From the NCBI GenBank assembly GCA_964615415.1, contig CAZTNI010000002.1, positions 104,687-168,686 of the forward strand: a stretch of DNA of 64,000 nucleotides, read 5' to 3'. Numbering within the stretch: position 1 is the first letter of the stretch; the number at the start of each line of letters is the position of its first letter. Made by a program: the position numbers and the translations under genes. The notes under the pieces were generated by a model that saw only the letters and a list, made by a program, of their open reading frames with translations, made no database searches and was not told the origin of the DNA. Shown piece after piece: positions 18,323 to 56,644 of this stretch. Origin of the DNA: an uncultured Candidatus Saccharibacteria bacterium. GTDB lineage: Bacteria; Patescibacteriota; Minisyncoccia; Phycocordibacterales; SBAW01.

Positions 18323-18360
18323 AAAAAGAGGCGAGGTCTTATAAGACCTCGCCTTTATTT
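18323..18360. terminator. bidirectional terminator between typA and nadV
   Basis: AAAAAAGAGGCGAGGTCTT-ATA-AGACCTCGCCTTTATTT. Confidence 0.75.
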
Positions 18361-18361
18361 G

Positions 18362-19777
18362 TTACAGAACCTGCGCACGGGAGCGAATCTCGGCGAAGGT
18401 GTATTCATGGAGTACTTTCCCGTTTACAAACACCGGCACCAGCACGTTCTCGAGGTTTTGAACAATCGCATCTTCCTCGCGGATCGTGCGGTAGGTGCCG
18501 TCTTCCTCGACGAGAGCCAGTCGACCGGCCTTCGAGCGCTTGCCCGGGTCGGTCACGGGGTCCTTGATCACGTCGTGCCAGGTACCGTCGACATCGACCG
18601 CAGAGCATTTGATCGCGAACTTCTGCGTATCGCGATTCATATTCTGCAGTAGTCCGCCGCCGGAGCCGAACGCAACGTTGTCTGCAGACCAGCCCGCCTC
18701 CTTCATCGCTTCGAGTACGACACCGAGCATTGTGTAGTCGATGCCGTCGCCCTGGATGACACGCACCTTCGGGTTGAGGACCTTGTACCCCTTCTCGTTG
18801 GTGGTGTATCCGAAGGCACTGCCGAGTGCTTCGAGCACCTTCACGACGACATCGGGCGGATTGCCCGAGTCCGGGCGTACCACTAGGGTGCCGTCGCGGG
18901 CCAGGACCTGCTCACGCAACTCCTTGCCCCAGAGCTCGGTGCATGCCCGGTAGATGTCGAAGCTGTCAGAGACGACAGCGACGAGGCCGGTCGGGTACTG
19001 TTCGAGCATGTTGCGGTACGCGTCCGCCTCCTTGTTGCGACCCCACGAAGTAATTGTGGAGTGCTCCGCAGCGGGGATCGAGTATCCCGCCATCGGCTCG
19101 TGGTAGTACTTGCGCGCGACACGAGTCGCCTGGAGCGTGTCGGTGCCGCGGAAGGAAACCAAGTGTGCGGCGCCGCCGAGGCCCGCGGACTCGACCGAAG
19201 TCGAACCGCGGAAGCCGAAGTCGTGGACCTTGAAGTCGATCAGCGCAGGAGTACCGGTCTGCTCCAGATAGGAGAGGACTAATCTCCGCATCTCACGGCT
19301 CTGAGTCGCCACGGTGGTGGGGTACCAGAGCATCGAGAGTAGGGTCTCGACATAGTTGGTGATCCACGGTAGTTCCGGATCCGTATTTTCGATCGTCATC
19401 AGCACGTTGCGGGTCGGAACCGAAATTCCTTCCGGCACTGCCTTGATGATGACCGGCAGCCGTCCGCCGTGAACGTTCAGGATACGATCCCATCCGTCAC
19501 GGTTGTAGACGCCCGGAGTGCCGAAGTGTGCAGCAAAATCTTCTGCCGCTTCCTCGACATTCTGCCGGTTGACGACCGGACCCTCGAGATACCGCTTGAG
19601 ATAGTACTGCAGTCCAAAGAAGGTGGTGCTCGCAAAGAGGCCACCCCGGCTTTCGAAGAAGGAATACACCTTCCTCGTTTTGGGCGGGTACTGCCGCCAG
19701 TGCGAGACCTTGTAGCTGTCGGTCAACTCGACCGTATTGACTTCGTCTTCGACGAAGAGGCGAGGATTGTAGTTCAT
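18362..19777 (-). CDS. nadV: nicotinamide phosphoribosyltransferase (NadV/Nampt family)
   Basis: NPRLFVEDEVNTVELTDSYKVSHWRQYPPKTRKVYSFFESRGG Nampt signature; start at the internal Met with an AAGGAG RBS; ~470 aa. Confidence 0.85.
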   Translation of the reverse strand: MNYNPRLFVEDEVNTVELTDSYKVSHWRQYPPKTRKVYSFFESRGGLFASTTFFGLQYYLKRYLEGPVVNRQNVEEAAEDFAAHFGTPGVYNRDGWDRILNVHGGRLPVIIKAVPEGISVPTRNVLMTIENTDPELPWITNYVETLLSMLWYPTTVATQSREMRRLVLSYLEQTGTPALIDFKVHDFGFRGSTSVESAGLGGAAHLVSFRGTDTLQATRVARKYYHEPMAGYSIPAAEHSTITSWGRNKEADAYRNMLEQYPTGLVAVVSDSFDIYRACTELWGKELREQVLARDGTLVVRPDSGNPPDVVVKVLEALGSAFGYTTNEKGYKVLNPKVRVIQGDGIDYTMLGVVLEAMKEAGWSADNVAFGSGGGLLQNMNRDTQKFAIKCSAVDVDGTWHDVIKDPVTDPGKRSKAGRLALVEEDGTYRTIREEDAIVQNLENVLVPVFVNGKVLHEYTFAEIRSRAQVL

Positions 19778-19802
19778 GAGAGTGTCTCCTTTTGTATTGC
19801 GA

Positions 19803-20756
19803 TTACCGGTGCCGTAAGGCTTCCAGGTCATCGAGCATGGGTTGGACAGACGTTTTCCTTGCAGATTCCGTAAGATGCTCAGTCAGCATCTCACCAAACG
19901 CTTGGTGTCCGGGTTGAAGCACTGCAAGTAGCTTGTCGTACGGAATCCAAGCAAGGTGTGCGATATCGTCTGCGGGGCAGGGAGTCCCGGAGACATACGT
20001 TGCCGCGAAGAGAGTACTCATGATGACGTCTCCTGTGCCGCGGTAGCGCCAGTCGTCAACAACGCGCGAGCCTACAAAGCGGATGTTGGCGAGCGTAGGT
20101 AGTGAAGTTTCTTCCCTGGCTTCGCGCAGGGCTGCTTGTTCAAGAGATGCGTCAGTCGTGTCGACAAACCCGCCGATAAAGCGGTACTTGTCGCCGTCAC
20201 TCACCTTTGCCCCGAGCAAGACTTCTTGTCGGGCCGGATTGAGGATGGCGATGTCGACCGCAGGGTAGGGAATAGGAAAGCGATTTTCCTGCGTGTGAAT
20301 CACTCCCCGTCTGAATGCTGCTGAGCGCAAGATGCGTTTTGAAGTTTTGCGGCGATACTCGGTGCCGCTTTGCGCATCAATCTTCGGCACTTCAACGACA
20401 GTGTTTCCTCCACTGTAGTAGGGGATGAACGAGTCTCGAGATCCGTAGAGCACGGCGTTTGCGGCGGGGAACGTTTTCGCGATCAATGCATCGAGATTCT
20501 TACTCCACTCTTCGTTTGAAGGGTGGTCATAGAGTGGGGCAATATGCGCGTGCGGATATGCCGTGCGCACCATTGCTTCGCGCATTACATACGAGAGAGG
20601 ATTCTTCTTGGTGGGGAAGGCCTCGGTCGCGCCGATCAAGATCAACAGCTGGTCGTGGCGTGCAGCAACGTAGTCGAGAAGATAGCGGTGGCCAGCGTGG
20701 AGAGAGGCTACTTGAAAGCGGCCAATTACCACGCCAACGCTGGTTCGTGTGTGCAT
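19803..20756 (-). CDS. nadM: bifunctional NMN adenylyltransferase / Nudix hydrolase (NadM-Nudix)
   Basis: GVVIGRFQVASLHAGHRYLL cytidylyltransferase HxGH motif; C-terminal Nudix box GGFVDTTDASLEQAALREAREETSL; start moved to MHTRTSVG, which has a GGAG RBS. Confidence 0.8.
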   Translation of the reverse strand: MHTRTSVGVVIGRFQVASLHAGHRYLLDYVAARHDQLLILIGATEAFPTKKNPLSYVMREAMVRTAYPHAHIAPLYDHPSNEEWSKNLDALIAKTFPAANAVLYGSRDSFIPYYSGGNTVVEVPKIDAQSGTEYRRKTSKRILRSAAFRRGVIHTQENRFPIPYPAVDIAILNPARQEVLLGAKVSDGDKYRFIGGFVDTTDASLEQAALREAREETSLPTLANIRFVGSRVVDDWRYRGTGDVIMSTLFAATYVSGTPCPADDIAHLAWIPYDKLLAVLQPGHQAFGEMLTEHLTESARKTSVQPMLDDLEALRHR

Positions 20757-20797
20757 GTTATTTCTCCATGTTGTTAAAGAACCTCCCGTTCGATTAG

Positions 20798-20818
20798 TTA
20801 GTGTTATTAATACACTAA
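20798..20818. promoter_or_regulatory. NrtR-type operator TTAGTGTTATTAATACACTAA (21-bp palindrome, GT-N7-AC core)
   Basis: Perfect 7-bp inverted arms TTAGTGT/ACACTAA with a 7-nt AT spacer, 42 bp upstream of the nadM start. Confidence 0.6.
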
Positions 20819-20861
20819 CATTAGGTAAAAAAATAAGCCTTTTTACCCTATCGTACGAGAC

Positions 20862-20882
20862 TTCGTGTATCTTATACACTAA
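20862..20882. promoter_or_regulatory. second NrtR-type operator TTCGTGTATCTTATACACTAA
   Basis: Same 21-bp layout with one arm mismatch; 64 bp from the first site, in the ARH-nadM intergenic region. Confidence 0.5.
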
Positions 20883-20950
20883 CAAAACAGAAGTCAAGTC
20901 GCGCTGTGGATAAGAAAAACCCCGGCTTCTGTGAGCCGGGGTGAGTGTCG

Positions 20951-21970
20951 TTACGCGAACTGTTGATTATCGGGACGAAAGAGCTGGGCTTTGTTGAACA
21001 AGGCTACGCCCAGCTCGGTCATTTTCTCGCGTCCATGCAGCACCTTAAGCCATTGCTCCGGAATCCCGCCAATGCCGTAGCGAAGTCCAAGGAGCCCGCC
21101 CGCAATTGCGCCGTAGGTGTCGACGTCGCCGCCCACAGAAATTGCCTTGATGATGCCGTTGGCAAAGCTGGTGGCAGTGACTGTTGCCCATACTGCGACA
21201 CGCAACGAGAGTACCACGTCGCCCTCATGGCCCTGAATGTTGAGGTTGTAGTTGGGGCTGGTAAGGGGAAGAGAGGTGACATATTTGACTGCATCTGCTT
21301 CAAGGTGCGGAACATCTGAGAATTTGCGCGCAAGTCTGCAAGCATCTTCCCATGCATTGCGTGGTTCGATGCCGTAGAGCAGTAGGTTGGCCATGATGCT
21401 GTAGATCGCGCACGAAGCAATTGCGAGACCGTTGCGGTGAGTCACCCACGACTGTTCGGCGCCCAGCACTGCTGCTTGGCGAGCGTCGCCTCTTGCGGCA
21501 AGAGGTGCTGCAATACAGCGCATAAGGCTCCCGTTGCTTGCTGGAGTAGGAATGTTTCCTGCGGCAAACTCCGCGATAGACTCTGCGTGAGTTGCCGGTC
21601 TCAGTGCTGCTCGTAGTGTACTGCCGCTGCCATACGCGACCTTGCCGAGGATGGGCCTGCGGCCATGGATGAACGCACGCAAGTGGTCGTATACGAGAGA
21701 TGCAGAAAAGTCGTCTGCGGCGAGTAGGGCAGAGGCAAGGTAGGCAGCAAGCTCAGAGTCGTCGGTCGGCTGCCCTGCCTCCATGAGAGTCTGGCCCAAC
21801 TTCCCCGGAGGATCGAAGGGTTTGTAGTCATGGAAGACCAATCCGCCACGTGCTATGTCGGCAGCAATGTACGCATCGCTCTTCCATTCGTACGGTGCGC
21901 CGAGTGCGTCACCGCAGGTAGTGCCGACCATGGCACCAACAAAACGATCAAGTGTTTCTTTTTCAAACAC
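20951..21970 (-). CDS. ADP-ribosylglycohydrolase family protein
   Basis: MFEKETLDRFVGAMVGTTCGDALGAPYEW...GQPTDDSELA are ARH (DraG-like) signatures; 339 aa. Confidence 0.8.
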   Translation of the reverse strand: MFEKETLDRFVGAMVGTTCGDALGAPYEWKSDAYIAADIARGGLVFHDYKPFDPPGKLGQTLMEAGQPTDDSELAAYLASALLAADDFSASLVYDHLRAFIHGRRPILGKVAYGSGSTLRAALRPATHAESIAEFAAGNIPTPASNGSLMRCIAAPLAARGDARQAAVLGAEQSWVTHRNGLAIASCAIYSIMANLLLYGIEPRNAWEDACRLARKFSDVPHLEADAVKYVTSLPLTSPNYNLNIQGHEGDVVLSLRVAVWATVTATSFANGIIKAISVGGDVDTYGAIAGGLLGLRYGIGGIPEQWLKVLHGREKMTELGVALFNKAQLFRPDNQQFA

Positions 21971-22051
21971 GAATGTTTCCTTTCTTGTTGAGAATAACTT
22001 CCAAACCGACTATAGCAACAGCGCTGAAGAGTGTAAAGCAAACACTAATTG

Positions 22052-22750
22052 TTACAGTACTTCTATTTCGTGCACTTTTGGTGAGGTGAACTTATAGAGT
22101 TGTGCGGGGCGGAAGCGGCCGCCAGTGCGCTTGCGAGGGAGTTCAGTCACGATTTTTAATTTGTGAATTTTTTTACGGAAATTTCGCTTGTCGAGGTCAG
22201 CATGCAAAATACTTTCGTACGCTGATTCAAGTTCGGTTAGTGTAAATTCCTCTGGCATAAGTTTACTCATGAGGGTGGTGTAGGTAACGCGCGAGCGAAG
22301 GCGTTTAAGGGCAATGTCGAGCATCTCGTCGTGGTCGTAGGCAAGTGACTTTGCGTCTTGAACGCGCGCCCACCACGCATCTTGAGAATCTCCTTGTTCG
22401 GCGGTCGAAAGAGCGTCCCATGGTATAAACCCGCTGTACGCTACAGCGACAACACGGCCGCGAGGGTCGCGACTTACTTCACTAAAGGTATAGAGTTGCT
22501 CGAGATAAATCTTTTTTGATGAGACTCCCGCTTTTTCTTCAAGCAGGCGCTTCGCTGCTTCTTCAGCAGTTTCTTTCGGGTGGATAAGGCCGCCGGTAAA
22601 TGCAGCAGAGTTGGGGAAGTGGGGAGGGCGATGTACTGAAACAAGACGCACAAGGAGTTCGTTGTCGCGAATAGTAAAAAGCACCACGTCGGATGCGATA
22701 ACTGCAAACCGCAAATGGGCAGGCGCAAGAGAGGTTTTTGCCTTTTTCAT
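22052..22750 (-). CDS. nrtR: Nudix-related transcriptional regulator NrtR (Nudix domain + C-terminal winged-helix)
   Basis: N-terminal Nudix-like domain (FAVIASDVVLFT...TGGLIHPKETAEEAAKRLLEEKAGV); C-terminal ~90 aa wHTH; sits at the head of the nadM/nadV/ARH operon with matching palindromic operators. Confidence 0.7.
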   Translation of the reverse strand: MKKAKTSLAPAHLRFAVIASDVVLFTIRDNELLVRLVSVHRPPHFPNSAAFTGGLIHPKETAEEAAKRLLEEKAGVSSKKIYLEQLYTFSEVSRDPRGRVVAVAYSGFIPWDALSTAEQGDSQDAWWARVQDAKSLAYDHDEMLDIALKRLRSRVTYTTLMSKLMPEEFTLTELESAYESILHADLDKRNFRKKIHKLKIVTELPRKRTGGRFRPAQLYKFTSPKVHEIEVL

Positions 22751-22807
22751 ACATGTATTATAGCAGCAGTATAGATATTGTCAAGAGTACACTTATCAAC
22801 ACCTAAG

Positions 22808-22828
22808 TTAGTGTAAACTTGACACAAA
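22808..22828. promoter_or_regulatory. NrtR-type operator-like site TTAGTGTAAACTTGACACAAA
   Basis: Left arm perfect, right arm 6/7; lies in the nrtR / J-pseudokinase divergent intergenic region. Confidence 0.4.
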
Positions 22829-22860
22829 ACAAGTGCGGGTGTAGAGTCCGATATAGATAG

Positions 22861-22881
22861 TAAGTGTAGCAAATACACTTA
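22861..22881. promoter_or_regulatory. NrtR-type operator TAAGTGTAGCAAATACACTTA (perfect 21-bp palindrome)
   Basis: 8-bp perfect inverted arms with GT-N7-AC core; 46 bp upstream of the 22927 gene and 111 bp upstream of nrtR. Confidence 0.55.
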
Positions 22882-22926
22882 TAAACAAAGATCTTTCACA
22901 ACAGCAAAAACGCTAGGAGGTGGCGC

Positions 22927-24081
22927 ATGAGTAGCGTCGACGCAGTTGAACAGGTGCTCGCAAAACTCACTACCGCAACCACGTTCGTAGCGGTCTTCGG
23001 ATCGCTCCCAACGGGCGATGTGCGAGAAAAGCGAGGCGCGCTGCGCAAGCAGTTTGCGTACTTGGTTAATCTGGTACATCCAGACCACGTGCCGCCGATT
23101 ATGAAAGATCGTGCAGGCGAAGCGGTGCAACGACTTACCGACCTGCATGCTGCAGCGAAAGTTGCGGTCGATGCGGGAAAGTATGAGGTGCCGTTTGCTG
23201 CTGGGTCGACCGTGTCGCCCAAGTCGGCAGAAGTGGTGCTGCAATCACCGACCGCGACATATCGCCTTTCCGGTAATCCGTACAAGGAAGGAGACTTCTC
23301 GGTACTCTATCGGGGTAGTGTGGTTGGTACTGGACACGACGTGATCATAAAGATCGCCAGTGTTCCCGCACACAACACGTACCTCGAAGCAGAAATCAGA
23401 ACGCTGAAGAAATTCAGTGGCGCTGATCCTGTCTCGCCTGTCGGTAAGATAGGCCGGTTTGTGCCACGAGTGCTCGATACGTTTCTGGTGTCTGACGAAG
23501 ACAACCGGCGTGTGCGAGCAACAGTGCTTCCGTATCTCGATGGCTACGTGGCAGTGAGTGACATCATTGGCGCGTTCCCAAACGGGCTCGACCCACGAGA
23601 CGCTGCATGGATTGCCCGGCGACTGCTTGCACAAGTGCTTGCGGCGCAGGCTATCAAGGTGGTGCATGGGGCGATCGTTCCTGACCACCTGTTGGTGTCA
23701 CTTCATTCGCACGACCCGCTGCATATCGGGTGGGTGCACGCGATCGAGGACCCAGCGACTACCGGCAAGCGCATCACTCAGGTGATCGACCGCTATCGCG
23801 AGTGGTATCCGGAAGAAGTCTTCCACAAGGAAGTGCCTGACTTCCGGACTGACCTCTACATGGCCGGGAAAACTATCATCAAGCTTTTGGGTGGCGACGT
23901 AAGGCGGAATACATTTCCGACAAGCGTTCCCGACCAACTGAAGCGCATCATTCTTCGGTGCGTTGAAACATCTCCCGCGCGCAGGCCAAGTAACGGCATG
24001 CAGTTCCTCGACGAGTTCACAAGCGTCGTCAGGAATGTGTGGGGGAAGGCGTGGCGACCTCTTTCGATGCCGCCACGTTAA
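22927..24081 (+). CDS. J-domain (HPD) + kinase-like domain protein (predicted pseudokinase)
   Basis: N-terminal FVAVFGSLPTGDVREKRGALRKQFAYLVNLVHPDH aligns to a DnaJ J-domain including HPD; kinase-like GDFSVLYRGSV...DVIIKIAS...LEAEIRTL; catalytic-loop position reads VVHGAIVPDHLL (no catalytic Asp); AGGAGG RBS. Confidence 0.55.
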   Translation: MSSVDAVEQVLAKLTTATTFVAVFGSLPTGDVREKRGALRKQFAYLVNLVHPDHVPPIMKDRAGEAVQRLTDLHAAAKVAVDAGKYEVPFAAGSTVSPKSAEVVLQSPTATYRLSGNPYKEGDFSVLYRGSVVGTGHDVIIKIASVPAHNTYLEAEIRTLKKFSGADPVSPVGKIGRFVPRVLDTFLVSDEDNRRVRATVLPYLDGYVAVSDIIGAFPNGLDPRDAAWIARRLLAQVLAAQAIKVVHGAIVPDHLLVSLHSHDPLHIGWVHAIEDPATTGKRITQVIDRYREWYPEEVFHKEVPDFRTDLYMAGKTIIKLLGGDVRRNTFPTSVPDQLKRIILRCVETSPARRPSNGMQFLDEFTSVVRNVWGKAWRPLSMPPR

Positions 24082-24120
24082 AATCGCTTATGAGCAACCA
24101 GAAGAAAAGGAGTACTCCAC

Positions 24121-25158
24121 ATGGGTGGCGGTACCTTTGATTCAAGTGCCTACCGCGCAGCAGCTGCTGCGCGTGCGAGTGCCGGCGTCGACGACTTCGA
24201 CTATGACCGCAAGGTTAAGTCGGGCGTCGTGTCTGGCATTCATGCAAGCCTCGACCCGAAGACGGTCGCGGGCGCAACCAGTCCTCTCGCGGGAAAGAAT
24301 GTCCGCGAGAGTCGCGACAACGATGAGCATCCGAACTCGATCCCGATCGCTGTCTTCTTCGACGTCACGGGTTCGATGCATCGTGTGCCTGTCGTGCTCC
24401 AGAAGAAGCTCGCGACGCTGATGGACGTGATCATCGCCAAGGCCGGCATCCCCGACCCGCAGGTTCTGGTCGGCGCTATCGGCGACTCGAGTCCGTACTA
24501 CGGGCGTGGTATGACCGACCAGTATCCGTTCCAGGTCGGGCAGTTCGAGTCGGACAACCGCTTCGACGACGCTCTGCGCAACATCATCCTCGAGGGCGGA
24601 GGCGGCGGGCAGGTCATGGAGTCCTATGGACTTGCATACCGCTTCGCCGCTCACCACACGGCAACCGACGCGTGGGACAAGCGCGGCAAGAAGGGCTACC
24701 TCTTCACCATGGGTGACGAGGCCTTCTGGCCCACGATCACTTCTGGCGAGCTGAAGCAGATCTTCGGCGTCGAGGATGCGGCGGATGAATCCGTTGCGGA
24801 TCTCTATGCCAAGGCCTCGGAGCGCTGGGAGATCTACCACATCGCTATCACCGCCGGCACGTCGCACGGCGGCAACACCGCCATCCACGACAAGTGGCGT
24901 GCTCTGCTCGGCGAGCGCTTCATCAAGCTCGACGACGCAGACCTCGTCTGCGAGGTGATCGCCGGTATCGTGCACATGCTCGAAACGGCGAACGACCTCG
25001 ACAAGGTCGTCGGCGACATCGGCCTCTCCGGCCGGGCGGCAACGAGTGTGAAGAACGCACTCGTTCCCGTATCGGGCGGCCGCGTCCCCGGTCACCTCGC
25101 GAAGGGGAATCTCCCCAAGCGGCGTGACAAGGGCGCGGGCGGTGTGAGCGCGATCTAG
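24121..25158 (+). CDS. von Willebrand factor A (vWA) domain protein with MIDAS motif
   Basis: IAVFFDVTGSM (DxTxS MIDAS) plus downstream T and D residues; 345 aa; ~62% GC; AAGGAG RBS; terminator at 25181-25214. Confidence 0.6.
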   Translation: MGGGTFDSSAYRAAAAARASAGVDDFDYDRKVKSGVVSGIHASLDPKTVAGATSPLAGKNVRESRDNDEHPNSIPIAVFFDVTGSMHRVPVVLQKKLATLMDVIIAKAGIPDPQVLVGAIGDSSPYYGRGMTDQYPFQVGQFESDNRFDDALRNIILEGGGGGQVMESYGLAYRFAAHHTATDAWDKRGKKGYLFTMGDEAFWPTITSGELKQIFGVEDAADESVADLYAKASERWEIYHIAITAGTSHGGNTAIHDKWRALLGERFIKLDDADLVCEVIAGIVHMLETANDLDKVVGDIGLSGRAATSVKNALVPVSGGRVPGHLAKGNLPKRRDKGAGGVSAI

Positions 25159-25180
25159 TATCGCCTCTATACACAAACCT

Positions 25181-25214
25181 ATGGCTGGACGGTATACCCG
25201 CCCAGCCATTTTTC
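25181..25214 (+). terminator. intrinsic terminator separating the vWA gene from the purA-like gene
   Basis: ATGGCTGGACGG-TATAC-CCGCCCAGCCAT + TTTTTCT. Confidence 0.65.
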
Positions 25215-25233
25215 TCACCGAAAGGAGAACGAC

Positions 25234-26577
25234 ATGAGTAACAGAAAAGCGACTATCGTCGTCGGACTCGGGTTCGGTGACGAAGGTAAGGGAACAACCG
25301 TCGACTACCTTGCTCGACAGAACGACGTGTCGGCAGTAGTTCGCTTTAACGGCGGCGCACAAGCCGCACATAACGTGGTGACTCCCGATGGGAAGCATCA
25401 TACGTTCCAGCAGTTCGGGAGCGCATCGTTTCTGCCGCGGGTACGCACGCATCACTCTCGTTTTATGGTGCTCGACCCGCTTGCTCTTGCGAACGAGGCG
25501 AAACATCTGGCGGAAATTGGATGCGGCAATGTGTTCGCTCGACTTTCGGTCGACGAACAAGCGCTCGTGGTGTCGCCCTTCCACAAGGCGGCGAATCGCA
25601 TTCGCGAAGTGCTTCGAGCGAAGGGTAAGCATGGCAGTGTTGGTATGGGTGTGGGCGAGACGGTTGGCGACTCGATCGCATTTCCGGAGTACGCACTCCA
25701 TGCACGCGACTTGCGAGACCGTGCAGCAATTCTTTCTCGCTTCAAGTTCTTTCAGAATATGAAGCAAGGAGAATTTCGGGAACATCTCTCCGACCTTGCG
25801 AGTAATCCGCATATACAAGAAGAAGTGAAGATCCTTGCGGATCCGGATATGCCTGCGCTACTCGCCGACTTGTACTACCGGGTAGCCATGCGCTTTCCTA
25901 TCGTCGATGGAAACTACCTTGCGCGACTCGCACGCGAGGGAAGTCTTATCTTCGAAGGGGCGCAGGGAGTACTGCTTGACGAGTGGTATGGGTTCCATCC
26001 CTACACCACCTGGAGCACAACGACGTTTAGAAATGCACTGACTCTCTTGCGAGAAATCGGCTACGAGGGTCATGTGGAAAAGCTCGGTGTGCTCCGTGCG
26101 TACTCGACGCGCCACGGTGCCGGTCCCTTCCCGACGGAAGATCCGAATCTTGGCATGTTGGTGCCGGAGCTGCATAACGGCATTGGGCCGTGGCAGGGCG
26201 GCTTCCGTATCGGCTGGCCGGACCTGGTGCTCGCCCGGTACGCGCTCGCGGTTGCGGGTGGGGCAGACGCACTTGCGATCACGCACCTCGACCGCTTCAT
26301 GCCGCTTACTCGTAAAAAAGTCGCGGTACGCTACCAAGTTCGCGACACGACTGTTGCTACTCTGCAGCCGAAAGAGCACCTTACTGATCTGGTCTACCAA
26401 GAGCAGCTCATGGGGCTCGTATCTCGTGCTACTCCGCAGTATGAAGATATTGCTCCGGGGGAAGCAGCGTACCTACAATTCCTCGAGCGACGGCTCTGCG
26501 TGCCGATCGCGCTTACCTCGCACGGCATGACGTATCTCGATAAACGTTCCCGTTCTATGGTAAGAGCGGCAGCATGA
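25234..26577 (+). CDS. adenylosuccinate synthetase (PurA) family protein, divergent paralog
   Basis: GLGFGDEGKGTTVDYL, FNGGAQAAHNV, FEGAQGVLLD and GVLRAYSTRHGAGPFPTE match PurA; canonical GTTGRGIGP reads GSVGMGVGE and GATTGRRRR reads GPWQGGFRIGWPD. Confidence 0.7.
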   Translation: MSNRKATIVVGLGFGDEGKGTTVDYLARQNDVSAVVRFNGGAQAAHNVVTPDGKHHTFQQFGSASFLPRVRTHHSRFMVLDPLALANEAKHLAEIGCGNVFARLSVDEQALVVSPFHKAANRIREVLRAKGKHGSVGMGVGETVGDSIAFPEYALHARDLRDRAAILSRFKFFQNMKQGEFREHLSDLASNPHIQEEVKILADPDMPALLADLYYRVAMRFPIVDGNYLARLAREGSLIFEGAQGVLLDEWYGFHPYTTWSTTTFRNALTLLREIGYEGHVEKLGVLRAYSTRHGAGPFPTEDPNLGMLVPELHNGIGPWQGGFRIGWPDLVLARYALAVAGGADALAITHLDRFMPLTRKKVAVRYQVRDTTVATLQPKEHLTDLVYQEQLMGLVSRATPQYEDIAPGEAAYLQFLERRLCVPIALTSHGMTYLDKRSRSMVRAAA

Positions 26578-26596
26578 GTTCTTTGTTCTACGTACT

Positions 26597-26630
26597 AAGC
26601 CCTGCTACGCGCAGGGCTTTTCTTTTTGTA
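26597..26630 (+). terminator. intrinsic terminator after the purA-like gene
   Basis: AAGCCCTGC-TACGC-GCAGGGCTT + TTCTTTTT. Confidence 0.7.
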
Positions 26631-26649
26631 TATTTGGTAGGATAGAGGT

Positions 26650-27177
26650 ATGCACACGGAAACTATTGTTCTTGGAGGTGGGTGCTTTTGGTGCACCGAA
26701 GCGGTGTTTACGATGCTGAAGGGTATCGTGTCTGTGCGACCAGGATATGCAGGCGGTCATGTTGCAAACCCAACCTACGAACAAGTTTCAGGAGGTAAGA
26801 CGGGCCACATAGAAGTGATAGAAATTGTGTACGACCCGGACCAACTTTCTTTCGAAGAGATTTTGCAGGTATTTTTTGATACCCACGACCCGACGACACC
26901 CAACCGACAGGGGAACGACGTGGGTCCGCAGTATCACTCGGCTGTTTTTTACACCACTCCTCGGCAGAAAGAAAAAACCGAGCACTACATCATGCTCATA
27001 AAAAATAAATTCACCAAGCCTATCGTTACTACGGTTGCGCCACTTGATACGTTTTATGTGGCCGAGGATTATCATCAGCAATACTACGAGCACCACAAAG
27101 ATGCACCGTACTGCCAAGTCATTATTGATCCGAAGGTAGAGAAAGTGCAGACTAAATTCAAAAATCTACTAAAATAA
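26650..27177 (+). CDS. msrA: peptide methionine sulfoxide reductase MsrA
   Basis: IVLGGGCFWCTEAVF...YHQQYY are MsrA active-site motifs. Confidence 0.85.
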   Translation: MHTETIVLGGGCFWCTEAVFTMLKGIVSVRPGYAGGHVANPTYEQVSGGKTGHIEVIEIVYDPDQLSFEEILQVFFDTHDPTTPNRQGNDVGPQYHSAVFYTTPRQKEKTEHYIMLIKNKFTKPIVTTVAPLDTFYVAEDYHQQYYEHHKDAPYCQVIIDPKVEKVQTKFKNLLK

Positions 27178-47618: not shown

Positions 47619-49016
47619 ATGAAAGAAGAAATTCTTTATTTTCTGCCGAAGACGCTCGAAAGCGCTTTTGCGTGTCTTGATGCCGAAGGGCTTACAGCTG
47701 TGGAGCGAATAGTCGAGATCGAAGGATTCAAATTCCCCGGTCTCGTCATCTCTGGGCCAGAGGAAAAGCTTGAGCATTTTGCTCGGACGGCACGCGTACC
47801 CGAAGGTGGGCCGCGTGCGAGATTGCTTACTAATTTGGAAAAGATCTACGGCTCGCGCCTTGTGTTCGATGAAAAAATCGAACTCTGTGGCGAAACTGTT
47901 GTGGACGACAAAATGTGTCACGTGCTCGGGCTCGAGGGTGTTGTTGCAAACCTGCCGGAATATGGGTGGGGCTTAGATAAACATACCGAGCTTCTGGACG
48001 AGATCAATAGTACGCTCGCCGATATTTCTGCTTGGGCGGGGAAACCTGTTCTTCTTGCGGCGCCTTCGGAAGTCGTGGTGGGTCTCCCGCTTATTCCAGA
48101 GACGCAGATCTGCGTCATTCTCGATAGTTCTCCGGCGGGACACTACTCTGAAATGAGGAGTAAAAAACTGTGCGGCGTTTCCTTCAGCGAAATCGATGAA
48201 GGTATACGCCACTCAGGACCGACCGCAGGGAGAGGGTATGTAGTGCGCGACGAAGATGGTACTGCAGTTGCACAAATTATCCGGAACTGTTTCTACCTCT
48301 TCTTGCCATATGATGTGCTCCATAAGCGCATGGTACTGACTCAGGGTGGAAACGGCCTCGGCCTCTTTCGTAAGACGCTCATGCGAGCATGGAATGCGCA
48401 GTTTGAAGCGCGTGATCCTCAGATAGAAGTGTTCGAAAGTGCTGAGGCATACGTTGCCTTTGGACGAGAGACGGTTCAGGAAGCGCCGAGGATCCTTCGT
48501 GCACTTGTGGACGCACACGACAAAAAAATCGCTGAGGCAGAAGAAAAACTGCGGAATGCGATATCTGAAAAACGTCGTATGCTCCGCCTGATCGAGCACT
48601 TAGAGCGCGAGGCGAGTGAACTGACGCCTGAAAAGTTGAAACAGAGTTGGAACAAGCTTACTCAGTTGCCACAGGTGCGCTCTATAGCTTCGGTAGATAA
48701 CGCACTCCAGGTCGAGACTAACCTGCTTGTGAATACGCAGTACGGTCGTCGGCCGCTCGGGCGCTACATCCTACGTCTTGCAGAGCAGCAGATCTTTGTG
48801 TGGTGTATCGAGTCGTGCCATCCGGCCGGCTTGTCGCATCCGCACATTGGCGTTAAACATGGTAACCCGTGTTTCGGCAACGTTTCTATCGCGATTCAAA
48901 AAGCAGCAAGCGAGTCTCGAGCGTATGCTATCGAGTTAGCTATCCGCTGGCTCGAAAGTGGATACGACCACGACCTCGCAGATATAAAGATCACTGAGTG
49001 GCCGGAGGCAGCGTAA
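47619..49016 (+). CDS. multidomain protein with C-terminal E2 (UBC-like) ubiquitin-conjugating-like domain
   Basis: C-terminal IFVWCIESCHPAGLSHPHIGVKHGNPCFGNVSIAIQ parallels the UBC HPN-x(5-8)-G-x-(I/P)C(L/F) catalytic motif; AAAGGAG RBS; stop overlaps the E1 start (TAAATG). Confidence 0.5.
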   Translation: MKEEILYFLPKTLESAFACLDAEGLTAVERIVEIEGFKFPGLVISGPEEKLEHFARTARVPEGGPRARLLTNLEKIYGSRLVFDEKIELCGETVVDDKMCHVLGLEGVVANLPEYGWGLDKHTELLDEINSTLADISAWAGKPVLLAAPSEVVVGLPLIPETQICVILDSSPAGHYSEMRSKKLCGVSFSEIDEGIRHSGPTAGRGYVVRDEDGTAVAQIIRNCFYLFLPYDVLHKRMVLTQGGNGLGLFRKTLMRAWNAQFEARDPQIEVFESAEAYVAFGRETVQEAPRILRALVDAHDKKIAEAEEKLRNAISEKRRMLRLIEHLEREASELTPEKLKQSWNKLTQLPQVRSIASVDNALQVETNLLVNTQYGRRPLGRYILRLAEQQIFVWCIESCHPAGLSHPHIGVKHGNPCFGNVSIAIQKAASESRAYAIELAIRWLESGYDHDLADIKITEWPEAA

Positions 49017-49658
49017 ATGGTAGAACGTAACTACTCGCACCAAGACGATTTCTTTAACCCTGCGAACGCTCGGTCGGTAACGCTAATCGGCTGCGGATCG
49101 GTCGGGAGTATGGTAGCGTACACTCTGGACAAGATGGGTGTGCCCACGCTTGAGATATGGGACGGCGACAAAGTGGATTCCCACAACTGCCCCATGTCGT
49201 TCTATGACGAACCTGACATCGGCCGCTTCAAGGTCGATGTGCTGGCAGAGCGGCTTCGTAACGCGCAGGTGGTCCCTCATCGGGCCATGTATGCCGGCGA
49301 AGCGCTTACGAGTAGTGTCGTTATCGCTTGTGTCGACACCATGGTTGCGCGCAAACTCATATGGGAGCGCGTAAAAATGGTGCCGAGCGTCGCTTTGTTT
49401 TGCGACACGCGTACGGCAGAGCTCTATGTCGAAGTCCTTACTGTCTCGCCCTGCGAGCATGAAGACATCGGCAACTACGAGCAGCTGCTCTACGGCGACG
49501 AAAAGGCGGTGCGTCAGTCGTGTGGCCGGCATGGGCTCATGACCGTTTCCATGCGGGCAGCGCAAGTGGTTGCTTCCAACCTTGCTGCGTTTTGGCAAGA
49601 TGGGAGAAAGACGTGGCGCGTTGGTGAGCGGACAGACATCCACCACCGCGCGTTCTGA
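49017..49658 (+). CDS. minimal E1-like ThiF/MoeB-family adenylyltransferase
   Basis: VTLIGCGSVGSMVAYTLDKMGVPTLEIWDGDKVDSHN (GxGxxG Rossmann plus acidic loop) and VIACVDTMVARK match the E1 adenylation fold; 213 aa; translationally coupled to the E2-like gene. Confidence 0.65.
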   Translation: MVERNYSHQDDFFNPANARSVTLIGCGSVGSMVAYTLDKMGVPTLEIWDGDKVDSHNCPMSFYDEPDIGRFKVDVLAERLRNAQVVPHRAMYAGEALTSSVVIACVDTMVARKLIWERVKMVPSVALFCDTRTAELYVEVLTVSPCEHEDIGNYEQLLYGDEKAVRQSCGRHGLMTVSMRAAQVVASNLAAFWQDGRKTWRVGERTDIHHRAF

Positions 49659-50522: not shown

Positions 50523-51170
50523 CTACCAGCTGTTCGATTCGTCATTCCACATCTCGGGGGTGAGCCCGGCGCGCGGAGGAACGATGTGCCCCTTCAGGAT
50601 CTGGCACATCCGCCGGACGTTGCGTCCGACCAGGACTCGGTCGGTCGTCTGCCAGTCGCCTTCGGATGAACCCCCCGCCATGTTCTTGTTGTAGAAGTAC
50701 GAGCAGAACGGCGGGATGTGCAGGCCCATGTGGTTGGCCGGACTGAACATCTTTTCATTCGCCGACTGGCCGCCATCTTCTTCGCATGCACTCATGAACG
50801 CGCCGACCTTGCCCGCGAGGCAATAGTCCGGGGCGTCTGTCGTGACTTGGAGCCAGCTCAGAAGAGCGAGCATCCGCGACGATGCGGTAAAGTTCCGCAC
50901 CGGTGTCGCGAAGATGATTCCGTCGGCCGCGAGAATCGCACGTACGATGTCCGGGAGGCGGCCCTCGTCGGGCAGCATCGCGATCCGCGTCTCGAGGTCG
51001 TAGACCTCTTCGTGCCGACGGCCATCGTCGTGCGGGATCTGGCCGAGGTGAATCATATTCACCTCGGTATCGACCAGCTCACCAGCTGCCCTGAGGGCAG
51101 TGACAAGCATGTTGGCGACGTTGCCGTTTTGGAACGGCGAGGCGTTGATGCCAACGATCTTGATAGTCAT
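50523..51170 (-). CDS. NADPH-dependent FMN reductase / flavodoxin-like fold protein
   Basis: MTIKIVGINASPFQNGNVANML... is typical of the FMN_red N-terminus. Confidence 0.55.
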   Translation of the reverse strand: MTIKIVGINASPFQNGNVANMLVTALRAAGELVDTEVNMIHLGQIPHDDGRRHEEVYDLETRIAMLPDEGRLPDIVRAILAADGIIFATPVRNFTASSRMLALLSWLQVTTDAPDYCLAGKVGAFMSACEEDGGQSANEKMFSPANHMGLHIPPFCSYFYNKNMAGGSSEGDWQTTDRVLVGRNVRRMCQILKGHIVPPRAGLTPEMWNDESNSW

Positions 51171-52761: not shown

Positions 52762-53058
52762 ATGATCTACGGGGCAGTACTTGCACTCCATATTGTTGCT
52801 GCGTGTGTAACTTTTGCAGTTATTGCGGGTGTAGGCATTGCGCTTTTGAAGCAAATGCATCGTTTCTATAAACCACTGGGTCTTTCGCTCGCTCTCGTTG
52901 CGCTTGTACAAATTGCAAGCGGCGTCATGATGATCGTACTTAATCCGGAACTCTCTGTACTAAAAGTTGGTCTGCACTTACTTGTGTACCTTGGCGTGTG
53001 TGTGATGGTTGAGGGTGCGCTCTACCTTAAGGCGCGCTCAGTTGCATGGACTTCTTAA
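52762..53058 (+). CDS. small membrane protein upstream of cyoA
   Basis: ~99 aa, 3 TM helices; start MIYGAVLALH follows the terminator; overlaps the cyoA start. Confidence 0.4.
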   Translation: MIYGAVLALHIVAACVTFAVIAGVGIALLKQMHRFYKPLGLSLALVALVQIASGVMMIVLNPELSVLKVGLHLLVYLGVCVMVEGALYLKARSVAWTS

Positions 53059-53861
53059 ATTTTTTTGACGTCTTAAACCCTGCGGGAACTATCGCCCTTG
53101 CGGAGCGCGGACTTATGATCCACGCAGCACTGTTCATGACTATAGTCACCATTGCGGTCTTTGGTCTGACTTTTTTCTTTGCGTGGTATTACCGCGCAGG
53201 GAACACGAAGGCGAAATATACTCCCGACTGGCAGCACTCGCGGATGGAGGAACTTGTCTGGTGGGCGATCCCACTCGAAATTATTCTTGTACTTGGAGCA
53301 TTAACGTGGACGAGTACACACAACCTCGACCCGCGTAAACCACTTTCAGCAGAACCGCCGCTTGTGGTGCAAGTGGTGGCGCTGGATTGGAAGTGGCTGT
53401 TTGTGTATCCGGAAGAACATATTGCGACGGTTAATTATGTGCGCATCCCGGTTAATAAACCGGTGCGATTTGAAATTACTGCCGACGCGCCGATGAACTC
53501 GTTTTGGATCCCGCGCTTGGGCGGACAAATTTACGCGATGACGGGCATGGTGAATCATTTGAACTTAGATGCAACCGAAGAGGGAACGTTTAAGGGATTG
53601 TCTGCGAACTATAGCGGTGAAGGGTTTGCAGATATGAAATTTACAGTCGAAGCGACCTCGCAGGAGGAGTTTGATGCATGGGTAGCACAGACAAAAATGC
53701 AGCACGCAGTACTAACAACCGACTCCTACGCTGCGCTTGCGGCACCGAGTGTGGTCGAAGAGCCTGTGTATTACGGAATAGTCGAATATAATTTATTCGA
53801 CCAGATCGTAGGAAAATTCATGGGGCACGCACATGAAGTGAATGAACACGCACATCAGTAA
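53046..53861 (+). CDS. cyoA: quinol oxidase subunit II (CyoA/QoxA-like, no CuA ligands)
   Basis: 2 TM helices plus cupredoxin-like domain NSFWIPRLGGQIYAMTGMVNHLNL without the CuA Cys/His set. Confidence 0.8.
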   Translation: MDFLNFFDVLNPAGTIALAERGLMIHAALFMTIVTIAVFGLTFFFAWYYRAGNTKAKYTPDWQHSRMEELVWWAIPLEIILVLGALTWTSTHNLDPRKPLSAEPPLVVQVVALDWKWLFVYPEEHIATVNYVRIPVNKPVRFEITADAPMNSFWIPRLGGQIYAMTGMVNHLNLDATEEGTFKGLSANYSGEGFADMKFTVEATSQEEFDAWVAQTKMQHAVLTTDSYAALAAPSVVEEPVYYGIVEYNLFDQIVGKFMGHAHEVNEHAHQ

Positions 53862-53864
53862 TAT

Positions 53865-55673
53865 ATGTTTGGAAACCTTACCTTAGACGCTTTCATACAT
53901 GGTCCGATAGAAACCGGCGCGCAGCTCATGGTTGTACTTGGCGGTGTGGCTATCGCCCTTTTGCTCACCGTCTTTAAACGGTGGGGATGGTTCTATAAAG
54001 AGTGGCTCACGACCGTCGACCATAAAAAGATCGGCATCATGTACATCATCCTCGCGGTGATCATGCTCTTCCGTGGTGCGATGGATGCGTTTATGATGCG
54101 TGCACAACAAGCGATAGCGGTGGGTGACAGCGTGGGCTACCTCGACCCAAACCACTTTTCGCAAATCTTTACGGCGCATGGGATCATTATGATCTTTTTT
54201 GTCGCTATGCCCTTGATGTTCGGGCTCATCAACTACATGGTCCCGCTCCAAATTGGTGCGAAGGATGTCGCGTTCCCGTTCCTGAACTCTGTCTCGTTTT
54301 GGCTTACTGCTGCAGGGGCGATGCTACTTAATGCGTCGTTAGTGATAGGTGAATTCGCGGCAACGGGGTGGCTCGCATATCCGCCGCTCTCCGGTATTGA
54401 GTACAGTCCTGGTGTTGGAGTCGACTACTACATTTGGGCGCTCCAGATAGCAGGTGTCGGTACACTCCTTTCGGCAATCAACTTTATTGCGACGATTCTG
54501 AAGATGCGGAAGGCAGACATGAAGTTGATGCAGATGCCTATCTTCCCGTGGACCGTGTTCGGCTCGATGCTGCTCGTCTTGTTTGCATTCCCGATCCTTA
54601 CCGCAACGCTCGCACTCTTGTCTTTGGACCGTATCTTCGGCATGCACTTCTTTACCACCGACCTTGGCGGGAATGCCATGATGTACATCAACCTGATTTG
54701 GGCATGGGGTCACCCGGAGGTGTACATTCTTATCCTCCCCGCGTTCGGTATCTTTTCAGAAATTGTGCCAACGTTCGCGCAGAAAAAACTCTTCGGCTAC
54801 ACCTCTATGGTTGTTGCAACGATGATGATCGTCTTTTTGTCGTTCATTGTGTGGGTGCACCACTTCTTTACGATGGGTGCTGGCGCAAATGTGAACGCAT
54901 TCTTCGGCATCATGACCATGGCTATTGCTGTACCAACCGGCGTAAAAGTATTTAACTGGCTCTTTACGATGTTCCGTGGTCGCATCATCTACAAAACCCC
55001 GATGCTGTGGTTTATGGGATTCCTCGTCACCTTTGTAATCGGCGGCATGACGGGTGTCTTGATGTCGATCCCTGCGGCGGACTTCCAGCTCCACAACAGT
55101 TTGTTCCTTGTGGCGCACTTCCACAACATGATCATCGGCGGCGTATTGTTTGGCATGTTTGCGGGGCTCTCGTATTGGTTCCCAAAAATATTTGGATTCA
55201 TGTTGAACGAGCGCTTGGGCAAGTGGGCATTTTGGTCATGGATCATCGGTTTTTTGGTCGCGTTTTTGCCAATTTATGCTGCAGGGTTGATGGGTATGAC
55301 GCGCCGCTTAAGCCAAGTGGAGCCGCAGTTCCAGCCACTCCTTATTGTTGCTGCAATTGGTGCGTGTATCATTGCGCTCGGTATTTTCTTCCAAGTGCTG
55401 CAAATTGTGGTCAGTATTGTGCAGCGCAAACAGCATCCTGCAGGAAATAATCCATGGAACGGAACGAATTTGGAGTGGACACTGCCGTCGCCGCCGCACT
55501 ACGAGCCGTACGACCCGAAGCACAACACGCTGCTTGGTGTGATGATAGCGGGGCTTAGCTTCTTTCTGGGGTTTGGGATCATCTGGCACATATGGTGGCT
55601 CGCAGCCGTCGCAGCTGTGGCGATAGTTGGCGGACTTATCCTGCGTACATTTAGATATGAAGGAGCACACTAA
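53865..55673 (+). CDS. cyoB: heme-copper quinol oxidase subunit I
   Basis: [23 protein letters not shown] and His-ligand pattern; 602 aa. Confidence 0.95.
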
Positions 55674-56217
55674 CACAGCAACATTCGGATTTTGGATCTA
55701 CCTCATGAGCGATGTGGTGCTTTTTGCATCGCTCTTTGCAACGTTTGCGGTGCTGCAAGGCGCAACGTTCGGTGGACCGACTCCAAAAGAATTATTTGAC
55801 CTACAGTTTGTGTTGTTTGAAACGCTGATCCTTCTTACCTCAAGTTTTACTGTGGGATTAAGTCTTTTGTCTGCACATGCAGGGAAGCGACAAGCAACGC
55901 TTATCTTCCTCGGCATGACCCTGCTTTTAGGCTTAGGATTTTTGGCGATGGAACTGACCGAGTTTCGTCATCTTATTGCGGAAGGGCATGGTCCCGGAAC
56001 GAATGCATATCTCTCCTCATTCTTTACGCTCGTCGGGACGCACGGACTCCATGTCTTTTTTGGCGCACTATGGATGATAGTGACGATGGTCTTTATTGCG
56101 CTGCGCGGCCTTGACCGTGCGCTCACAAAACTTGCGTGCCTCTCGCTGTTTTGGCACTTCCTTGATGTGATCTGGATATTTATTTTTACGCTGGTGTATC
56201 TTATTCCGATGCTATAA
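55657..56217 (+). CDS. cyoC: quinol oxidase subunit III
   Basis: [24 protein letters not shown] is a conserved subunit III N-terminus; start within the overlap with cyoB is uncertain. Confidence 0.75.
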
Positions 56218-56222
56218 ATCGT

Positions 56223-56552
56223 ATGCTTACTTCATCGCGCACATATGTTATAGGGTTCGCACTCTCTACACTGCTGACGCTTGCTGCGTTTGGCTTGGTC
56301 TTTCAATACATAGCAGGAAGTTTGCCCATAGCGCGCGAGTGGCTCATTGTTGCGCTTCTGGTGTTCGCGGTCGCGCAGTTGATCGTACAGGTAACGTGCT
56401 TCCTCCACTTAGGATCAGAAACAAAACCGCGCTGGCAACTCATCACGTTCCTCTTTTCCCTCCTTGTTGTAGTAATTTTAGTAGGAGGCAGCATTTGGAT
56501 CATGACCCATCTCACGCACAACATGATGCAAGACACCTCGCACGTGTGGTAG
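56223..56552 (+). CDS. cyoD: quinol oxidase subunit IV
   Basis: 109 aa, 3 TM helices, position in operon. Confidence 0.7.
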   Translation: MLTSSRTYVIGFALSTLLTLAAFGLVFQYIAGSLPIAREWLIVALLVFAVAQLIVQVTCFLHLGSETKPRWQLITFLFSLLVVVILVGGSIWIMTHLTHNMMQDTSHVW

Positions 56553-56644
56553 GGTTGGAGCGAAGTGCTTTGCAAAAAAGAGGCTATGACTTGGGCTAGC
56601 GCCCCCGGAGCGCACTCTTTTTTGTAATGCACGAGCTACTACAC

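Follow-up and report, generated by a model that had tools for sequence, protein, structure and literature searches.

A predicted NrtR regulon links nicotinamide salvage with an ADP-ribosylglycohydrolase gene and a phage-shared gene trio in a Patescibacteria genome

The window considered here is a stretch of 64,000 nucleotides (nt) from contig CAZTNI010000002.1, assembled from an uncultured bacterium of the Patescibacteria. Between positions 18362 and 22881 it carries four minus-strand genes: nadV, a nadM-type gene, a gene for an ADP-ribosylglycohydrolase (ARH, of the ARH/ARG family) and nrtR, the gene of a Nudix-related transcriptional regulator. An earlier reading made from the letters alone, called below the sequence-only reading, had placed these genes at the same coordinates with the same identities, and comparisons with Pfam, NCBIfam and the PDB agree with it. 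Beyond nrtR, three genes run in the opposite direction and encode a protein combining a J domain with a protein-kinase-like region, a protein with a von Willebrand factor A (vWA) fold and an atypical paralog of adenylosuccinate synthetase (PurA); we refer to them as the trio. All these features, together with the operators, promoter-like sites and terminators discussed below, are collected in Table 1. The content of the window is that of an ordinary chromosome (bipA, msrA, tgt, uvrABC, ddl, two tRNAs and a cytochrome oxidase operon), and an Rfam scan of the window returned the two tRNAs only. The best genome match of the NrtR protein, at 62% identity, lies in a Candidatus Saccharibacteria assembly, and further homologs are labelled Kaiserbacteria, Kerfeldbacteria, Minisyncoccia or Patescibacteria.

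Table 1. Features of the nrtR locus and of the divergent trio, in window positions (a point in the strand column: no strand assigned; aa, amino acids; bp, base pairs)
Feature	Position	Strand	Details
Bidirectional terminator hairpin, bipA/nadV gap	18329..18354	.	found on both strands; 11-13 pairs, T tracts
nadV, nicotinamide phosphoribosyltransferase (Nampt type)	18362..19777	-	471 aa; NAMPT_N 3e-34 and NAPRTase 4e-58
nadM-type NMN (nicotinamide mononucleotide) adenylyltransferase plus Nudix (ADP-ribose pyrophosphatase-type)	19803..20756	-	317 aa; starts at ATG 20756
NrtR operator, nadM 5' leader	20798..20818	.	TTAGTGTTATTAATACACTAA; 0 mismatches; centre 52 bp before nadM ATG
NrtR operator over -10 of nadM promoter	20862..20882	.	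TTCGTGTATCTTATACACTAA; 1 mismatch
nadM promoter-like site	-35 TTGACT 20897-20892; -10 TAAGAT ending 20869	-	consensus match
Intrinsic terminator after ARH, ahead of nadM-nadV	20919..20942	-	perfect 9-bp stem (7 GC pairs) and T tract
ADP-ribosylglycohydrolase (ARH/ARG family)	20951..21970	-	339 aa; GTG start 21970; PF03747 (ADP_ribosyl_GH) 2.5e-47
ARH promoter-like site	-35 TTTACA 22037-22032; extended -10 TATAGT ending 22009	-	10/12 matches
NrtR operator over -35 of separate ARH promoter	22028..22048	.	AGAGTGTAAAGCAAACACTAA; 2 mismatches; in 81-bp nrtR-ARH gap
nrtR, Nudix-related transcriptional regulator	22052..22750	-	232 aa; NrtR_WHD (PF21906) 8e-23 and NUDIX (PF00293)
nrtR promoter (predicted)	22757..22795	-	-35 TTGACA 22784-22779, 16 nt, extended -10 TG-TATAAT 22762-22757; 12/12 match
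Degenerate NrtR operator over -35 of nrtR promoter	22775..22795	.	3 mismatches
NrtR operator over -35 of divergent promoter	22808..22828	.	TTAGTGTAAACTTGACACAAA; 1 mismatch
Divergent promoter-like site	TTGACA 22819-22824, 17 nt, TAGAGT ending 22847	+	consensus match
NrtR operator just past -10 of divergent promoter	22861..22881	.	TAAGTGTAGCAAATACACTTA; 2 mismatches; 56 bp before ATG 22927
J-domain and protein-kinase-like protein	22927..24081	+	384 aa; phrog_3043 5e-32
vWA-fold protein	24121..25158	+	345 aa; MIDAS-like D81-x-T-G-S85; phrog_2971 1e-68
Atypical PurA paralog	25234..26577	+	447 aa; PF00709 1e-67; PDB PurA 4e-45; phrog_1211 6e-72
Terminator closing divergent three-gene operon	26597..26619	+	9-bp stem and T tract, 20 nt past PurA-like stop

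The NrtR protein has the architecture of its family, an N-terminal Nudix-like domain followed by a C-terminal winged helix. Among proteins of solved structure, its closest relatives by sequence are AraR of Bacteroides (8e-30) and NrtR of Shewanella (3e-22). In the AlphaFold2 model, which has a predicted local distance difference test (pLDDT) score of 87, the C-terminal domain is folded as helix-helix-strand-strand, that is, as a winged helix. A Foldseek search with this model retrieved 5BS6 and 3GZ6 at template modelling (TM) scores of 0.74-0.79 over about 210 residues, the targets being AraR and the DNA-bound Shewanella NrtR (3GZ6). The DNA-bound protein superposes at TM 0.74-0.78, and the winged helix expected by the sequence-only reading is indeed present in the predicted structure. 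The Nudix box, by comparison, is degenerate (G-x5-E-x7-R-L-L-E-E-K): it reads G-LIHPK-E-TAEEAAK-R-L-L-E-E-K-A-G-V, with RL for RE and EK for EE in the signature, and K73 is invariant among 30 homologs. The NrtR of M. smegmatis is substituted at the same two positions (RQ, EK) and at a third (G to D), and it is released from DNA by ADP-ribose. Judging from these residues, the Nudix domain of the window protein is probably a non-catalytic sensor. Against NF050029, the NCBIfam equivalog model for ADP-ribose-responsive repressors, the protein scores 132.7 bits and does not reach the cut-off of 400; by this sequence measure it is within the family but outside the NF050029 orthologous group.

A search of the whole window for TTAGTGT-N7-ACACTAA with at most two mismatches gave five matches, where 0.15 were expected and none of 100 shuffles reached five. 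When three mismatches were allowed there were six, all in the three intergenic regions of the nrtR cluster. The four 21-bp palindromes already listed in the sequence-only reading (20798-20818, 20862-20882, 22808-22828 and 22861-22881) were recovered at exactly these positions, and they agree with the published NrtR motif, a 21-bp palindrome with a GT-N7-AC core. Two operators had been missed (22028-22048 and 22775-22795), which brings the count from four to six.

The same motif was sought in related loci, gathered by a genome scan, a metagenome scan with an NrtR alignment and contig look-ups; a scan of genome contigs with the single NrtR protein had yielded three loci, one of them useful, and was superseded by the alignment-based metagenome scan. 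In the resulting set of 90 loci (948 kb), where genes were mapped by tblastn, 122 sites were found with at most two mismatches, about 40-fold above the 3.1 expected in local shuffles. Positions 8 and 14, which the search leaves unconstrained, are biased in these sites toward A (74%) and T (66%), and the resulting consensus is TTAGTGTA-N5-TACACTAA.

In the closest relatives, whose NrtR proteins are 62-72% identical to that of the window (L001, L005, L010, L011 and L097), the gene order is nrtR-nadM-nadV without ARH, nadM being preceded by two operators and nrtR by at least one; the layout of L097 is that of the window minus ARH. The two sites upstream of nadM are kept in all five loci as a pair 56-65 bp apart. 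The palindromes are thus conserved upstream of nadM/nadV orthologs, as they should be on the sequence-only reading. A hybrid form, TAAGTGTA-N5-TTGACAATAA, recurs 33-71 bp before nrtR in nine of the loci. Elsewhere, operators precede prs-nadV, nadE, a PncA-like gene with pncB, the operon of the J-domain/kinase-like gene, or a cassette led by a PP2C gene.

This last cassette, found in eleven loci, encodes a PP2C phosphatase, a kinase-like protein of about 626 aa with a zinc ribbon, a 360-aa isochorismatase-like protein of the PncA type and a 270-aa protein with a vWA-like DDSGS motif; ARH, nadE and pncB often follow it. The 360-aa protein had been taken for the vWA homolog, an assignment that we rejected, since it is isochorismatase-like and the DDSGS motif is on the 270-aa protein instead. 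The cassette looks like a signalling triad of vWA, PP2C and kinase proteins joined to NAD (nicotinamide adenine dinucleotide) salvage. In locus L092, for a PP2C cassette containing ARH, with nadE and pncB, the scan gave no operator at up to three mismatches, and nrtR is not found within 17 kb of it; in that lineage, either the motif has diverged or another regulator has taken over.

The position of the operators in the window can be compared with that of the promoters. A consensus scan gave four promoter-like sites, and each of them is overlapped or followed by an operator. The predicted -10 of nrtR ends 7 nt ahead of the ATG, so that the nrtR transcript is probably leaderless. ARH, which the sequence-only reading placed inside the nadM-nadV operon, appears from its sequence surroundings to form a unit apart: it is served by a separate promoter and operator, and a terminator cuts it off from the two salvage genes. 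The sites at 22808 and 22861 had likewise been attributed to nrtR. Both belong by position to the plus-strand promoter, the first overlapping its -35 and the second following it, and are therefore placed to control the divergent operon, while it is the 22775 site that overlaps the promoter of nrtR. Within the divergent gene set, the scan of 22900-26750 revealed no internal promoter-like site; given this and the terminator at 26597-26619, the trio probably forms one operon.

Of the two salvage proteins, NadV reaches 625.7 bits against PRK09198 of NCBIfam (cut-off 405), which makes it a NadV of the Nampt type. It also matches the phage family phrog_448 (4e-162), and is 66-74% identical to its orthologs in the five closest relatives. 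Its start is most likely ATG 19777, with GGAG 9 nt upstream and a product of 471 aa, against 472 aa for the L005 ortholog; the first ATG of the open reading frame (ORF), at 19831, is less likely. The NadM-type protein has a C-terminal NUDIX domain (PF00293, 1.7e-14, residues 165-284) with an intact REx2EE catalytic box (LREAREET). Its N-terminus is a cytidylyltransferase-type region, in which GRFQVASLHAGH aligns, with a 2-residue insertion, to Synechocystis NadM (2QJO) across GRFQ..HxGH, and the SxTxxR motif that was sought is present as SGTEYR. The protein is 45-50% identical to the products of the genes found between nrtR and nadV in relatives.

The ARH protein matches PF03747 over the full length of the domain (162 bits, residues 12-305), and its nearest solved relatives are DraG, Tri1 and ARH3. 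The motifs GDALGA..E28, T69-D70-D71 and G281-D282-x-D284-T285 are invariant across 33 orthologs; E28, T69-D70-D71 and D282-x-D284-T285 we take to be the binuclear metal site, as in the DraG and ARH3 structures. The scores stay below the equivalog cut-offs for DraG (100.8 versus 337 bits) and Tri1 (90.4 versus 490 bits).

Ten distinct contexts of ARH orthologs, which are 35-52% identical to the window protein, were compared, and in nine of them the gene is within or next to a set of genes for NAD salvage. The usual context, seen in L092, in four other loci and in one further place, comprises PP2C, the kinase-like gene of about 626 aa, a PncA-like gene, vWA, ARH, nadE and pncB, with nadM and nrtR nearby. 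Others are prs-nadV-ARH (L009) and a PncA-like gene followed by ARH and nadE (L096). That ARH has been recruited in several different layouts speaks for a functional connection with NAD salvage. With its own promoter, operator and terminator, the window ARH has the appearance of a gene inserted into an ancestral L097-type layout, in the space that separates nrtR from the operators of nadM. The sole context without NAD genes is in L006 (3647-7026), where an ortholog 52% identical to the window ARH lies two genes downstream of a bipA whose product is 77% identical to that of the window; bipA is thus near ARH in L006, whereas in the window it adjoins nadV.

As to the trio, a profile built from the N-terminal part of 25 family members of the kinase-like protein matches DnaJ-type J domains only (best 1.2e-7), and the HPD motif is invariant. 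An alignment of four sequences, compared by profile with the J domain of E. coli DnaJ, had given no significant match (probability 0.7). The full family profile finds protein kinases in the PDB at 3.5e-10. The protein reads HGA in place of HRD and IGW in place of DFG; with the HRD aspartate missing and DFG replaced, it is probably a pseudokinase. In Pfam, the search returned a sub-threshold kinase match for this protein (E=0.1) and nothing for the vWA protein. The fold of the latter is taken from its AlphaFold2 model (pLDDT 85.3, predicted TM score 0.86), for which the top Foldseek matches are all vWA/integrin I domains at probability 1.0; a four-sequence profile had retrieved nothing from the PDB.

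The PurA-like protein, about 30% identical to cellular PurA (a rough estimate from the alignment), keeps the P-loop GDxGKG as well as GGxxAxH and EGAQG, all invariant in the family alignments. It departs from canonical PurA in two loops: GTTGRGIGP, which we take to be the loop binding the phosphate of inosine monophosphate (IMP) in E. coli PurA, has become GSVGMGVGE, and TTGRxRR, presumably the aspartate loop, has become GPWQGGFR.

The trio accompanies NAD genes in the relatives too. It adjoins nrtR in L016 and L097, prs-nadV-ARH in L009, and the PncA-like gene, ARH and nadE in L096; in L026 its first two genes follow nrtR, after which the contig ends. In each of the five loci for which upstream DNA is available, the trio has NrtR sites ahead of it. 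The site TTAGTGTACTATTGACACAAA, near-identical to the 22808 site, precedes the L096 ortholog of the J-domain/kinase-like gene, operators are also found before this gene in L016 and L097, and in L026 the operator stands at the same distance of 56 bp as in the window. Locus L026 (6194 bases) has a GC content of 70%; its nrtR, J-domain/kinase-like and vWA genes are 46-61% identical to those of the window, and its operator is perfect. The module is therefore present in a high-GC organism as well, perhaps because it was passed between Patescibacteria and their hosts.

Homologs of the trio are also carried by phages. For the vWA protein, 220 phage records contain a homolog, among them 201 of Mycobacterium, 10 of Rhizobium and 6 of Vibrio phages. 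In a Vibrio phage and in a Rhizobium phage the vWA homolog directly precedes a PurA-like gene, and the same Rhizobium phage has PRTase-like and NMNAT/Nudix genes about 3 kb from this pair. Literature searches on a phage PurA/kinase module and on Saccharibacteria NadV returned nothing relevant.

We consider it likely that this locus is an NrtR regulon of a Patescibacteria genome, probably of the Saccharibacteria, in which NrtR acts on six operators at four promoters and is released by ADP-ribose. Bound to the six sites, NrtR would repress its own gene (autoregulation), ARH, nadM-nadV and the divergent operon. NadV and NadM would convert nicotinamide to NMN and NMN to NAD, and the Nudix domain of NadM would split ADP-ribose into AMP and ribose 5-phosphate. 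By analogy with the NrtRs already characterised, the repressor would leave the DNA when ADP-ribose accumulates from NAD consumption, allowing NAD to be resynthesised and ADP-ribose to be removed. ARH would add the ADP-ribose that it frees; the simplest reading is that it recovers this compound from modified targets such as proteins, or from O-acetyl-ADP-ribose. That the product of ARH might serve as inducer of NrtR is plausible, and the same idea has already been proposed for systems that combine ARG with a Nudix regulator (PMC9503650). The sequence-only reading had spoken of a complete NrtR regulon. The nicotinamide-salvage core, with ARH under the same control, stands, but the regulon is larger than was thought, since the divergent operon (22927-26577), with its conserved operators, is also a predicted NrtR target.

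Several observations weigh against this interpretation. The solved protein nearest to NrtR by sequence, ahead of the Shewanella NrtR, is AraR, a sensor of arabinose, and NdnR of Corynebacterium responds to NAD, not to ADP-ribose; taken together, these two facts leave the gene content of the regulon as the basis for naming the effector. Promoters were called by their agreement with the consensus and are not mapped starts. No gene for an ADP-ribosyltransferase or a sirtuin, either of which might supply ARH with substrate, was found among the approximately 47 window ORFs scanned, most of them of at least 150 aa. Lastly, the NCBIfam models for bifunctional NMNAT/Nudix proteins match the N-terminus of the NadM-type protein weakly (best 45.8 bits, with cut-offs of 312-449), as does solved NadM (5e-4), and the assignment as a probable NadM is based on architecture and synteny.

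The question arises as to whether the locus serves housekeeping NAD homeostasis in the first place. It could instead be mainly an ARG-centric conflict system of the kind proposed by Iyer, Burroughs and Aravind (2022), in which a Nudix-HTH repressor senses the ADP-ribose freed when proteins of the cell are ADP-ribosylated by a phage or a host cell, and induces ARH, vWA and J-domain partners of the chaperone type, and NAD resynthesis. The published scheme, with an ARG, a Nudix-HTH regulator, vWA or other peptide-binding chaperones and no cognate transferase nearby (PMC9503650), resembles what we observe: ARH, NrtR, the vWA protein and the J-domain protein are under one operator set, no transferase is present among the ORFs scanned, the trio has close homologs in phages, and ARH is found in NrtR-controlled units of several different arrangements. 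However, the phosphatase that about 55% of ARG systems possess is missing from the window, and close relatives such as L097, L001 and L005 lack ARH and have kept the rest. What is conserved at the heart of the regulon is NAD salvage, and a reduced genome requires this anyway. Moreover, PADLOC gave no match for NrtR, ARH, NadM, NadV, the vWA protein or the PurA-like protein, and matched the kinase-like protein only weakly, to kinase models of defence systems. We therefore think that a conflict system is rather unlikely here, though of the alternatives it fares best.

A second alternative is that NrtR senses a different ligand, either NAD as a co-repressor, as NdnR of Corynebacterium does, or a sugar, as AraR of Bacteroides does, in which case the feedback through ARH would not apply. 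AraR is the best match of NrtR in both sequence and fold, and NAD is known to improve the binding of NdnR to DNA. Yet the regulon contains no genes of sugar utilisation; it comprises NadV, NadM-Nudix and ARH, joined in relatives by Prs, PncA-like proteins, PncB and NadE, and three characterised NrtRs linked to NAD are released by ADP-ribose. This makes another ligand unlikely.

Finally, base composition has to be considered. The GC content at third codon positions (GC3) is 0.77 for nadV and 0.80 for the vWA gene, against about 0.48 for nrtR and bipA, and the sequence-only reading had raised the higher GC of nadV as a possible sign of horizontal origin. The syntenic orthologs of nadV in L001, L005, L010, L011 and L014 have an equally high GC3 (0.74-0.86), and their nrtR genes a lower one. 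High GC3 thus belongs to nadV as a conserved trait and does not point to recent acquisition, and we rejected a recent transfer of nadV on this ground. The highest GC3 in the window, 0.80 over a background of about 0.5, is that of an FMN-reductase gene (50523-51170), an outlier like nadV and the vWA gene. That nadV, or the whole GC-rich block at 18-27 kb, was recently acquired together with its palindromes and is no native regulon seems quite improbable to us, despite the GC3 values, the phage homologs of the trio and the presence of nrtR, the kinase-like gene and the vWA gene in the 70% GC organism of L026, because the syntenic nadV orthologs have the same high GC3, and operators and gene order are kept across NrtR identities of 45-72%, so that any transfer must be old and the regulon native to the lineage.

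Within the favoured interpretation, that of an ADP-ribose-released NrtR regulon for NAD salvage, the trio invites a speculation that we offer tentatively and hold to be less likely than not to survive in this form: that it is a functional unit tied to NAD or ADP-ribose stress, for example with a PurA-like ligase that restores or alters an adenine nucleotide from substrates other than IMP and aspartate, and a partner that recruits DnaK. If true, this would be an undescribed enzyme system, switched on by ADP-ribose in cells and carried by phages, possibly for counter-defence. The regulon at least offers a regulatory handle on the function of the phage 'PurA', vWA and kinase-like proteins, and suggests conditions under which to study it, namely ADP-ribose accumulation and NAD depletion. 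In this lineage, one sensor of the ADP-ribose type appears to couple NAD resynthesis, the removal of ADP-ribose from targets and a three-gene module shared with large phages. In the very small genomes of the Saccharibacteria type, nicotinamide salvage may be the main route to NAD, and the operator motif and regulon map make this dependency testable.

Two further features of the window, away from the regulon, deserve mention. At 47619-49658, a gene for a 465-aa protein without Pfam match is directly followed by one for a ThiF/E1-like protein (2.4e-14), a pair that may be involved in ubiquitin-like conjugation or be defence-related. The cytochrome oxidase operon (53046-57370) is of the haem-copper type, with COX2, COX1, COX3 and a UbiA-family (CyoE-type) prenyltransferase, and is unusual in a bacterium with a reduced genome.

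How does the locus compare with known systems? The nearest is the NrtR regulon of Synechocystis sp. PCC 6803, whose regulator (Slr1690) was found by gel shift to control nadM-nadV and is released by ADP-ribose in vitro (Rodionov et al. 2008, PMC2330246). Both have NrtR, 21-bp palindromes with the GT-N7-AC core and a nadM-nadV operon. The Synechocystis regulon, however, also covers nadA and nadE and includes neither ARH nor an operon of J-domain/kinase-like, vWA and PurA-like genes, whereas that of the window has no de novo branch and places six sites at four promoters in a reduced Patescibacteria genome. In Streptomyces, nrtR adjoins draG, which was read as a link to reversible protein ADP-ribosylation (PMC2330246). 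The window shares this neighbourhood of nrtR and an ADP-ribosylglycohydrolase gene, but here ARH, under an operator of its own, separates nrtR from the salvage operon, and in many Patescibacteria the ARH orthologs form part of operons for NAD salvage.

The ARG-centric systems (PMC9503650, section 3.8) have in common with the window an ARG without cognate transferase, a negative regulator of the Nudix-HTH type that is presumed to sense ADP-ribose, and a vWA or chaperone partner. They were listed from actinobacteria, planctomycetes and proteobacteria, with coupling of ARG to phosphatases in just over 55% and often to a chaperone, and NadV/NadM salvage, PP2C and a PurA-like enzyme are not mentioned for them in that paper. 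Here the partners are distributed otherwise: the PP2C phosphatase is found in relatives, and the vWA and J-domain proteins are encoded in a separate, co-regulated operon.

NARP2, by which phages such as KVP40 use the classical Nampt and Nmnat reactions to counter NAD-depleting defence (Osterman et al., bioRxiv 10.1101/2024.02.11.579819), rests on the same two steps, nicotinamide plus phosphoribosyl pyrophosphate to NMN and NMN plus ATP to NAD. The relevance to NARP2 claimed in the sequence-only reading holds as far as the enzyme pair is concerned. The locus is nevertheless not a member of that pathway, as it is chromosomal rather than phage-borne, lying among bipA, uvrABC, tgt and msrA under a cellular repressor.

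For the trio, the closest known arrangement is gp267-gp270 of the Bixzunavirus phages (Bxz1/Gizmo). Mycobacterium phage Gizmo has genes for the kinase, the vWA homolog, a small ORF and PurA in succession, the trio thus being in the same order as in the window, and the identities to the window proteins are 28% (kinase), 39% (vWA) and 43% (PurA-like, gp270). The Gizmo kinase has a J-like VHPD motif and, in VHGAITPD, the same HGA for HRD as the window protein, and the phage PurA-like proteins share the window loops (HGSxGxGIxET and N-x5-QG, where canonical PurA has GTTGRGIGP and TTGRxRR). The phage copies differ in having no NrtR sites and no adjacent NAD genes. The control of nadM-nadV by NrtR and the linkage of nrtR to ARH are already published; what appears to be new is the lineage and the set of genes in the regulon, in particular the trio, which lies under NrtR operators and has counterparts in phages.

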